Positions 45,001 through 48,000 of a DNA stretch of 52,827 nucleotides are shown here, piece by piece. Origin of the DNA: Candidatus Aenigmatarchaeota archaeon (GTDB lineage: Archaea; Aenigmatarchaeota; Aenigmatarchaeia; Aenigmatarchaeales; Aenigmatarchaeaceae); contig JBDRJK010000013.1 in the NCBI GenBank assembly GCA_043814985.1, positions 1-52,827 of the forward strand. Direction: 5' to 3'. The first letter of the stretch is position 1. Each line of letters begins with the position of its first letter. The position numbers were made by a program.

Positions 45001-48000
45001 GGCTGCGAGGCAGGCTTCTATGTAAGGAACCTAGCTGTTGATGTTGGAAAAAAACTCGGGGTGAAATCACACCTTCAGGAGCTTAGACGAACGAAAAGCG
45101 GAAACTTCTCTGAAGAGCAAACAATAACTTTGCAAAACTTGTTTGATGCAGTTGAGGAGGAGAAGATTAAGGAAGCTGTTCATCCAATGGAGATAGCTAT
45201 TGAGACAATAGGGAAGGTGGTTGTTTCTGACACGACAATAAGCAACATAACCAATGGGTCGCCTCTCTATGTCATGGGAATAAGCAGGCTCGAGGACAAC
45301 ATAAGGAAGGGAGAGTGGGTAGGCATGTTCAGCCTAAAGGGGGAGTTGATTGCAATTGGAAAGGCTTCAATGGACTCCAATGACATTCTCAAGAAAAACA
45401 AGGGTCTGGCAATCAAGGTTGACAGGGTTCTGATGAAGAAGGGAACATACCCCTCAGCTTGAAAATAATCTGGTATGGTCTTTTGAATAATAGTAAATAA
45501 CCTTTTTCTTGATTGTCTGTGCTCCAAGCCTGTTGATTATTATGAATACTGCTGCCGCAAAAACAACTACAACGATTATTGGAATCAAAAGGTTGAACTC
45601 CTCTTTTTTCTCTTGTGTTGTCAAGAGGTATTCCTCGGAGTTTGACCATTCATTATCAGTGTCATTGACAAATACCCTCCATCCTATGACAAGACCTGTG
45701 GCAGGGTTCAAATCCTTAAGAACCTCGACATAATCCTCTGTTCCCGACAATGATGACCAAGAATCATTCACCCACGTTCCACTGTTGTTCGTGGAGAATA
45801 TGAAGCCGGACAAACCATTATCATCCTGAACCTCAATTGAAAACATAACCTCCTCGCCTGCCACACTATTGTTTACATTGTGAGATGAATAATAAGGGGG
45901 TGTGTTAGGAACAGGTTCTTCATACTGAACAGTCAATGCCATTTCCGACGTTGCTATTTTTGTTGCACTGCCTGCCTTTCCAGTCACCCTTATTTCTACG
46001 TAGTGCTTTTTCACGTCAGCATTTGAGGGAATGTCAAAATTTATTTTTATTATGGTCGATCCCCCAGTAAGTAGGGCATTAGGTACATTTTCTATTGTAT
46101 ACCAATTAGAATCGATGCCCGTTAAGCTAACCTTAATGTCAGTGATAGTTTCATCCAAAGTGCTTGAGAGATTAAAGGTTCCCTGCCCACTCTCGCCAAT
46201 ATTTATTCTTAGGGATGATACATGAGTTATCTTGAATTCCTTTTTGATTACTGGCTTCTCCCCTTCTTTCGGCAAGACAACAATAGTCTTGTTGACACTC
46301 TGTTCCGAGTAATTATGATTCCCTTCAGTATCGCATATGTACAAATATGCTCCAACAGGAAGCGTTGAAACATCGGTTCTTGAAAGAGCGCTTGTGTTTC
46401 CTATTTTGGTTGAATTCCTGCGAAGCTCGAAATCACCAATATCTATTTGGCCCGTGTTAGAATAACAAGTCACCACTGTTGTCGTACCGTTATTAACTTC
46501 CTCAAAGGGGACATAAAAAGTCAGTGCACGAGCTTTGTAGATATTATAGACCTTCTTAGTGGTATTGTTTCCCATGTTTGAGATGTCCTTGGCGAACCAC
46601 ATGTAGGATATGTTCCTAGCCCTTATGTCTGTAATATTTATCCAATATGAATTGCCGTCATTATTAATCTTAGGAGTCGTGCTTGTCGTATAATTTTTCT
46701 TGGATCCCGTGAAATTGGATTCGAACTTGACCTCAGTTAGGTCAGCATCAAACCAGCTTATTCTGAAGTTATATGTTCCATTTTGCGAGTATAATGAGCT
46801 GTATGGTGGGCTTGTGGTTTCCTCTGAATATCTTGGAGCAAGGTTGTCAAAATAATAAGTTGATGAGGAAGATGTGTAGTTCTCATTACCATCCCAACTT
46901 CCTATAAGATTGAAAAAACCCTGGGTGGTGAGGTTCAGTATTCTGTATATTACTGAGTTATGGTCCTCAGTGTCTAAACCAGGATAGTTGGAGTTCAGGT
47001 GAACAGTCATTCCTGGTATGTCCAAATAGACAGTGAAGTTGGCCACTCCATTATGTTTATAGCTCCTGTTGCTTTGGCTCCCGTTCAATATCAATGTTAT
47101 GGGAAATGATGAATTTTTTAGAATACTATAAGATTCAGTGAAGGTTATGATACCGTCTGTATTGTTTACATACCATTTGTAAGAATAATCTCCTGTTGCC
47201 AAATCAGTTAGATTAAACCAGTATAGGTCACCACTATTCTGAACTGCTGGTGCGGTGTCATTAGTATAATTAACACCACTCCATTCGAAAGTCACATTTG
47301 AGACATTGGATATGTCATTAACATCTATCTGAAAGCCGTAATTCCTGTCAGGAGCGTATTCGGAATTTGTTGGAACAGATGTGCTTGTATCAACAGCCTC
47401 TGCTATCAAAAGCATGCTCAAAAGAAATACAAGCAAACATAATAGGAGTAATTTCATATTAATATATAAGAGATATTATAAATTAAAAATAAGGTGAATA
47501 TATGTTTTTGAGAAAGAAAAAAGCGACAAAGAAAAAGCCCAAAAGAAAGACAGCAAAGAAGAAACCAGCTTTCGGCGGCTACATGATAAAGCCGGACGAG
47601 AACTTTGCAAAGATAGTCGGGAGCAAGCCATTGTCTCCCTCTCAGATGACAAAGCAGGTCTGGGTCTACATCAAGAAGAAGAAGCTTGCAAATAAGTGAA
47701 GCAGTCGGACTTTGAAAAAGTGCAAATTCTGTAAGATTTAAAAATGTAGGAATATCTAAAATTCTTAGGCCGCTGTGGCAGAACCAGGTTAATGCGCCAG
47801 ACTTGAGGACAAATGATTAGATGGCTTGACTCTGATTAGCGGAGCATGAAGAGTGATAGGCGGAATGATGTCAAGTTATCTGGTGCCCGCAAGGGCTTGC
47901 AGGTTCAAATCCTGCCGGCGGCGCCTCTTTTTTATTTAGAAAAATAAATAAAGTTATATGGTATTTTTAGCCCAGATGATACCGTTTTCAGCAAGTTCCA

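Follow-up and report, generated by a model that had tools for sequence, protein, structure and literature searches.

A single-repeat SWIB gene

The window analysed here is a 52,827-nt stretch of a contig from a Candidatus Aenigmatarchaeota archaeon. On its forward strand, positions 47502–47699 hold an open reading frame that runs from ATG to TGA and encodes a protein of 65 aa, half-SWIB. A GGTGA motif resembling a ribosome-binding site lies 4 nt before the ATG (47493–47497, +), and the same motif stands ahead of the start in many orthologues. Residues 1–22 (47502–47567, +) form an optional Lys/Arg-rich N-terminal tail containing 13 K/R; the distance from the start to a conserved FGG motif varies from about 5 to 58 residues across the loci of the order. 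Residues 20–65 (47559–47696, +) form the conserved core, in which the alignment and an AlphaFold model (strand-helix-strand-helix, pLDDT 84) point to the FGG motif followed by one SWIB repeat with a symmetric predicted dimer interface. Eight core residues are invariant in the alignment (F24, G25, G40, P46, M49, T50, K51 and W54). As the initial annotation stated, PF02201 matches this single repeat over profile positions 4–38 of 74 (E 3e-6, 27.3 bits, cut-off 25, residues 30–64), and it does so nowhere else in the genome. PF02201 calls for two repeats, about 74 positions, in one chain; here the chain ends 11 residues past W54.

The gene starts 44 nt from a divergent gene and ends 70 nt ahead of an intron-containing tRNA. 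The divergent open reading frame (45454–47457, −) encodes 667 aa with a hydrophobic N-terminus and a C-terminal membrane-like stretch, without a Pfam match; it has relatives in loci of 8 genomes of the order and is possibly a surface protein. The tRNA (47769–47923, +; anticodon TGA, Ser; intron of ∼70 nt) was missed by a default ARAGORN scan and found by Rfam (RF00005, 43.6 bits) and by ARAGORN with its intron option; it is a neighbour, with no demonstrated part in the system. Near the contig end, a run of short open reading frames (49700–52100; 67–229 aa) may be an integrated element, and the four frames scanned gave no significant Pfam match. A sigma-70 promoter scan was set aside, the model being unsuited to archaea.

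The gene is real and complete. Of the 27 loci found in the order, 18 stop 11 residues and 9 stop 12 residues past the invariant Trp, and TAA, TGA and TAG all serve as stops. This extends to every locus the common end point described earlier and upholds the description of a complete 65-aa protein. Pairwise differences among 10 gap-free cores of the order number 521, 381 and 1195 at codon positions 1, 2 and 3; this weighting to third positions is the pattern of a coding gene. The partial Pfam coverage and a genome that is 91% complete might suggest a truncated, frameshifted or split gene with its second half unseen. We found no second half reachable by read-through or frameshift in the flanks, and a profile of the C-terminal half of SWIB matched only the half-SWIB gene itself (E 0.03) in this 91% complete genome; among all loci fetched, that profile reached at least 25 bits at canonical SWIB loci and at no half locus. 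The divergence is of the coding type, and the same end point recurs in every set of loci read (27/27, 80/80, 12/12 and 30/30, sets that share several identical proteins). Because the stop is conserved across phyla, an artefact is refuted as an explanation and we give it next to no credence.

The tail had been described as histone-H1-like. Its richness in Lys holds for this protein, but no Pfam histone-H1 match (PF07382 included) was obtained, SWIB being the only Pfam family at E ≤ 1 in the 65 aa; judged from sequence, the likeness to H1 is compositional. Nor does the tail define the family: it reaches at least 15 residues in 11/27 loci of the order (one more locus is ambiguous), and the FGG motif lies within 8 residues of the start in 73 of the 119 nearest database proteins. 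The Lys-rich tail is thus optional.

Distribution of half-SWIB

Within the order, half-SWIB is present in 26/42 genomes, as annotated before, one of which carries two copies. Matches are confined to three of the eight families (16/20, 7/7 and 2/2 genomes), with 0/12 genomes in the other five. A profile built from the 27 order cores found at least 562 stretches in GTDB contigs, and the 80 loci that were kept, at least 6 of which repeat order loci, all stop 10–13 residues past the Trp. The profile matched 73/201 genomes of the phylum to which the order belongs, 89/151 genomes in the phylum of an Iainarchaeum-titled genome, 83/201 in the class of a Nitrosopumilus-titled genome (12/12 read are halves) and 107/151 in the phylum of a Methylomirabilia-titled genome (30/30 read are halves; 103/147 without four genomes flagged unpublished). 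Matches whose end was not read were counted as halves because they cover the full profile and sit in short open frames. The phylum of a Woesearchaeota-titled genome, a sister DPANN phylum, gave 9/301, of which one is canonical and two are weak. Half and full forms mostly replace each other. Of 73 genomes in one bacterial phylum, a half-type gene is carried by 28, a full-type gene by 25 and both by 4, as typed by score and coverage with some of the ends read and among kin that are not independent. In Methylomirabilota, 107/151 genomes match the half profile and 0/151 match PF02201 at E ≤ 1e-6, the latter in a run without a positive-control genome (PF02201 found full-length copies in a separate search). 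Near-identical half-SWIB proteins occur in archaea and bacteria.

The family is therefore far wider than the initial annotation stated. SWIB had been called almost unknown in archaea, on an archaeal share of 0.001, yet the family profile finds the gene in 36–59% of the sampled genomes of three archaeal groups and also in two bacterial phyla. The low share reflects the Pfam cut-off, under which most halves fall: 4/5 genomes in one test set and 5/5 in another had no match above it. Some half-SWIB entries are automatically labelled SWIB/MDM2 or RSC6 in databases, and many are “hypothetical”. An extension of the range by record title to Acidoferrum, Dormibacterota and Deferrimicrobiaceae was rejected, as those genomes fall in the Methylomirabilota sample; Nitrosotalea- and Nitrosocosmicus-titled loci have the same gene neighbours as they do.

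We noted several variants of the gene and its relatives. Tails of KKKAAP-like repeats characterize Nitrosopumilus-type loci (for example L046, L097 and L120), in which TTG is the first start codon in 15/19 read. Six loci lie on IMG/VR contigs, putatively viral; 4 of them, on contigs of 23–97 kb, were read as halves (L202, L203, L205 and L206). In a bacterial phylum, three loci (L188, L189 and L190) encode a full-length SWIB with two insertions, one in the hairpin and the other in the second repeat.

Predicted dimer, tandem fusions and origin

The earlier proposal that the protein should form the SWIB fold as a homodimer is supported by complex prediction and by natural tandem fusions. Two copies of the core, modelled with an alignment made in this analysis, scored 0.45, 0.46 and 0.41 versus 0.00 in all three controls; the score of 0.45 is just above the pass mark of 0.42, which 20/30 solved homodimers and 1/23 single chains reached. 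The dimer runs have at least 93% of their contacts in common, with pLDDT of at least 75 and a symmetric interface. The best predicted contacts are L62–I29′/K30′, I57–I29′, V53–V53′, Y56–F35′, I38–I38′ and T50–T50′. In the joint alignment, half-SWIB has I29, M49 and, in part, D32 in common with canonical C-repeats and agrees with N-repeats at W54, Y56 and L62; the patterns used to choose the sequences had preset I and D in the C set, and M/L, T, K/R and W in the half set. The top predicted contact, Leu62 with Ile29, would thus join an N-type to a C-type residue.

As a monomer the model is less telling: a fold search gave a best SWIB Z of 3.8, tied with unrelated chains, with 9/24 rows SWIB/MDM2 and no Z ≥ 5. 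A BFVD fold search reached a best E of 0.64, its top 9 rows being giant-virus proteins, 7 of them named SWIB/DM2, and a PDB sequence search returned UAF30 only (E 0.17). Our structure searches, in which an absence weighs little, contained no solved half-size homodimer. The dimer score may owe its pass to likeness to solved SWIB/MDM2 folds. Taken together with the fusions described below, we consider half-SWIB very probably a homodimer.

Nature offers the two repeats joined. We collected 22 proteins that hold two half-type repeats in one chain, 8 from a representative search and 14 more; they are known from protein sequences, mostly on short contigs, and one family of 65–77% identity accounts for many of them. 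Their two repeats share 9–23 of 34 residues, whereas in 41 canonical domains the median is 7 of 30. The spacing from Trp to Trp is 47–50 in 19 of the tandems and 39–40, a tight linker, in 3. For one tandem, P0122 (model pLDDT 78), every one of the 46 Foldseek rows shown is a SWIB/MDM2 chain, none reaching E 0.001, and the top ten VIA rows are SWIB/MDM2 chains with Z from 9.3 (rmsd 3.0, 85 aligned) to 6.2; an eleventh follows at Z 3.8, ahead of the first unrelated chain (3.4). This tandem shows that halves can duplicate into a predicted full SWIB fold; the origin of the canonical domain by that route is a separate claim. Two adjacent half-SWIB genes, one of the long-loop and one of the short-loop type and ∼45 nt apart (L164:1459–1841), could form a heterodimer, a step before fusion. 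Other half or tandem proteins (P0146, P0163, P0302, P0121 and P0125) carry extra parts, among them acidic C-terminal extensions, a CBS-domain region (PF00571) and longer N- or C-terminal domains.

Whether half-SWIB is a relic of the domain or a secondary product was assessed from profile scores and trees. Canonical N- and C-repeats align at an HH probability of 92.7. Median profile scores (81 halves and 41 pairs, left from 344 and 73 once duplicates were removed) were 40.6 bits from half to N-repeat, 16.4 from half to C-repeat and 2.7 from N- to C-repeat; C-repeats scored 12.1 to halves and 5.9 to N-repeats. The half is much nearer the N-repeats (BLOSUM 85, versus 37 to C-repeats), as expected if a canonical bacterial SWIB had been truncated after its first repeat, re-symmetrised and spread by transfer. 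The patchy distribution, with 9/301 genomes in the sister DPANN phylum, fits such a history, and symmetric use would by itself select C-like interface residues. Against truncation, halves are nearer the C-repeats than N-repeats are, both in bits (16.4 versus 2.7) and in mean BLOSUM over 11 Pfam-selected pairs (37 for short-loop halves and 31 for long-loop halves versus 22 for N-repeats), and the step from half to tandem is visible in living proteins. On these scores the half lies between the two repeats, as a relic would and also as a re-symmetrised N-repeat would.

Trees were built from 34 columns with subsamples of 35 and 20 of the 81 halves, one long-branch row being omitted in the AU set. 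A quick tree, 60/92 of whose branches are open, attaches the N and C groups among the short-loop halves almost without support, which speaks slightly against truncation; AU tests reject neither the halves as one clade (p 0.74) nor the N-repeats as one clade (p 0.68), which leaves room for it. Relic and secondary halving thus come out about equal, the trees not deciding between them, and truncation with no relic has a little under an even chance. A more ambitious combined claim is that the homodimeric ancestor of the SWIB/MDM2 fold survives in half-SWIB, with the canonical domain arising in prokaryotes by the kind of duplication and fusion that living tandems still display, and that half-SWIB is also a chromatin protein so far overlooked in DPANN archaea, ammonia-oxidising archaea and Methylomirabilota; it is tentative, and we hold it to be on the doubtful side. 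A prokaryotic origin would go against the available parts of PMC2679021, which give a eukaryotic origin for the domain; those of PMC6426960 call the origin “still debated”, and those of PMC12455944 report SWIB genes transferred among Patescibacteria, with no length given.

Possible function and relation to known systems

The explanation we favour, and think somewhat likelier than not, is the following. The gene would encode one SWIB/MDM2 repeat as a stand-alone protein, and two chains would pair about a two-fold axis to rebuild the SWIB domain. The C-terminal Leu62 would pack against Ile29/Lys30 of the partner chain, replacing the hairpin between the repeats of full-length SWIB, and the long helices of the two chains would meet at Val53/Thr50. 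The resulting dimer, strongly basic and with two optional Lys-rich tails, would most likely serve the nucleoid as an accessory protein that binds DNA non-specifically, in the manner of the stand-alone SWIB proteins with two repeats that bacteria and plastids have.

For the nucleoid role, which by analogy we put just above an even chance, we cite charge (22 K/R versus 2 D/E; a median net charge of +7 for half-SWIB cores), the stand-alone gene and the apparent interchange with full-length SWIB; tail and core also match models of topoisomerase fusions at their SWIB end. Small, basic and stand-alone are marks of a NAP in PMC7613761, alongside high abundance, nucleoid enrichment and DNA binding, and the gene has the first three (65 aa, pI 10.8, a divergent gene upstream and a tRNA downstream). 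According to the accessible parts of the sources, the SWIB-only protein Wcw_0377 of Waddlia gives 1920 ChIP peaks along the genome (PMC6426960), plastid SWIB-4, equipped with an H1 motif, makes nucleoids more compact and can stand in for H-NS in an E. coli mutant (PMC4154389, a review), and chlamydial TopA bears a C-terminal SWIB whose function is yet to be settled (PMC12445093). A replacement of histones by half-SWIB in the order is ruled out: histones occur in 41/42 genomes, with or without the half-SWIB gene, and Alba is present in the source genome, so half-SWIB fills no histone gap here. Among ammonia-oxidising archaea, the accessible text of PMC7613761 puts the histone of N. maritimus at <0.06% of the proteome, which makes half-SWIB a tangible candidate for a chromatin protein in archaea some of which are in culture. 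That text lists two low-confidence candidate NAPs for N. maritimus; half-SWIB is not among them in a comparison that did not pin down the SCM1 orthologue, and neither its accessible passages nor a term search of 7 supplementary files mentions SWIB. As a weak hint that the gene is expressed, though not at what level, RNA contigs of two of four runs (X7 and X14, two studies) cover ∼1440–1635 of a Nitrosopumilus-type homologue (L120:1393–1650); those of X1 and X17 extend over almost all of the stretch, which makes DNA carry-over possible.

The same homodimer might instead use a symmetric cleft like that of MDM2 to bind a peptide or a protein, acting as an adaptor for topoisomerase, RNA polymerase, histones or some other factor, with the tail serving only as a tether. 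In the match of the monomer to hDM2 25–69 (rmsd 1.6, 40 aligned, Z 3.5, not above unrelated rows), the invariant P46, T50 and W54 fall on what we take to be cleft-lining positions of MDM2; T50–T50′ is predicted to lie on the dimer axis, and eukaryotic SWIB domains reside in protein complexes. However, no gene neighbour is conserved across lineages, synteny being found within lineages only, near-identical proteins are found in archaea and bacteria, which have few protein partners in common, and a Trp at the W54 site may fill the cleft. We regard an adaptor as unlikely. The Nitrosopumilus-type gene sits between what are presumably a RibD-like reductase and a hemerythrin-like gene, and 12 Methylomirabilota loci (for example L043:∼4900–5200, −) have a gene that we assume from its motif to be HU-like ∼1.6–2.7 kb downstream.

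RNA, on the ribosome or as tRNA, could be the ligand rather than DNA. A small, very basic protein would suit this; a tRNA call lies within 100 nt in 12/27 order loci, the window gene stands ∼2 kb past a run that we take to be secY, adk, a ribosomal-protein gene and a truB-like gene, and eIF2D SWIB domains are among the fold matches of P0122. The tRNA linkage is nearly confined to the order, though, and the patchy presence of half-SWIB, absent from 12/12 genomes in five families, speaks against such a role, which we deem quite improbable. Nucleoid DNA binding by a homodimer is the reading we favour.

The literature searched, which covers subscription journals thinly and includes accessible parts of PMC6372010, contains no description of a single-repeat SWIB among the entries listed, in agreement with the earlier searches. 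The origin of SWIB/MDM2 is unsettled and its prokaryotic function poorly known, and a family that falls mostly under the Pfam cut-off is nonetheless present in ∼40% of the sampled genomes of the Nitrosopumilus class. From the single repeat through adjacent duplicate genes and near-symmetric and then tight-linker fusions to the canonical domain, a natural series makes the duplication-fusion route testable with proteins of 46–96 residues. Human MDM2 grips p53 with this fold, and half-SWIB offers a testable picture of how the fold may have arisen.

MDM2 consists of two strand-helix-strand-helix repeats. Half-SWIB resembles the SWIB/MDM2 domain (PF02201; BAF60, RSC6, UAF30, the MDM2/MDMX N-terminus and the eIF2D SWIB) in its match to profile positions 4–38, in its predicted strand-helix-strand-helix repeat and in natural tandems that model as the full fold, but with one repeat per chain the fold needs two chains. 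FGG and a Pro-Ser, where the N-repeat has Arg-Thr and the C-repeat Met-Phe, are specific to half-SWIB. Like the stand-alone bacterial SWIB proteins (Waddlia Wcw_0377 and Chlamydia CT460) and the SWIB-fused topoisomerases (NF004966 and NF011313), it is small and basic, often with a Lys-rich N-tail; PF07382 appears on several full-length SWIB matches, and it is to the first repeat of these proteins that the half scores its median 40.6 bits. In contrast, those bacterial proteins and fusions contain both diverged repeats (the median of 7 of 30 given above), and full-length SWIB is found mostly in genomes without the half form. Plastid SWIB-4 is comparable in having an H1-like basic segment beside its SWIB domain and, in the accessible text of PMC4154389, reported DNA binding and compaction; by that description, to which the comparison is confined, it differs in its whole SWIB domain and its plant organelle. 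We conclude that half-SWIB, homologous to SWIB/MDM2 and taken to work like it with one repeat in place of two, is a variant of the SWIB/MDM2 domain.
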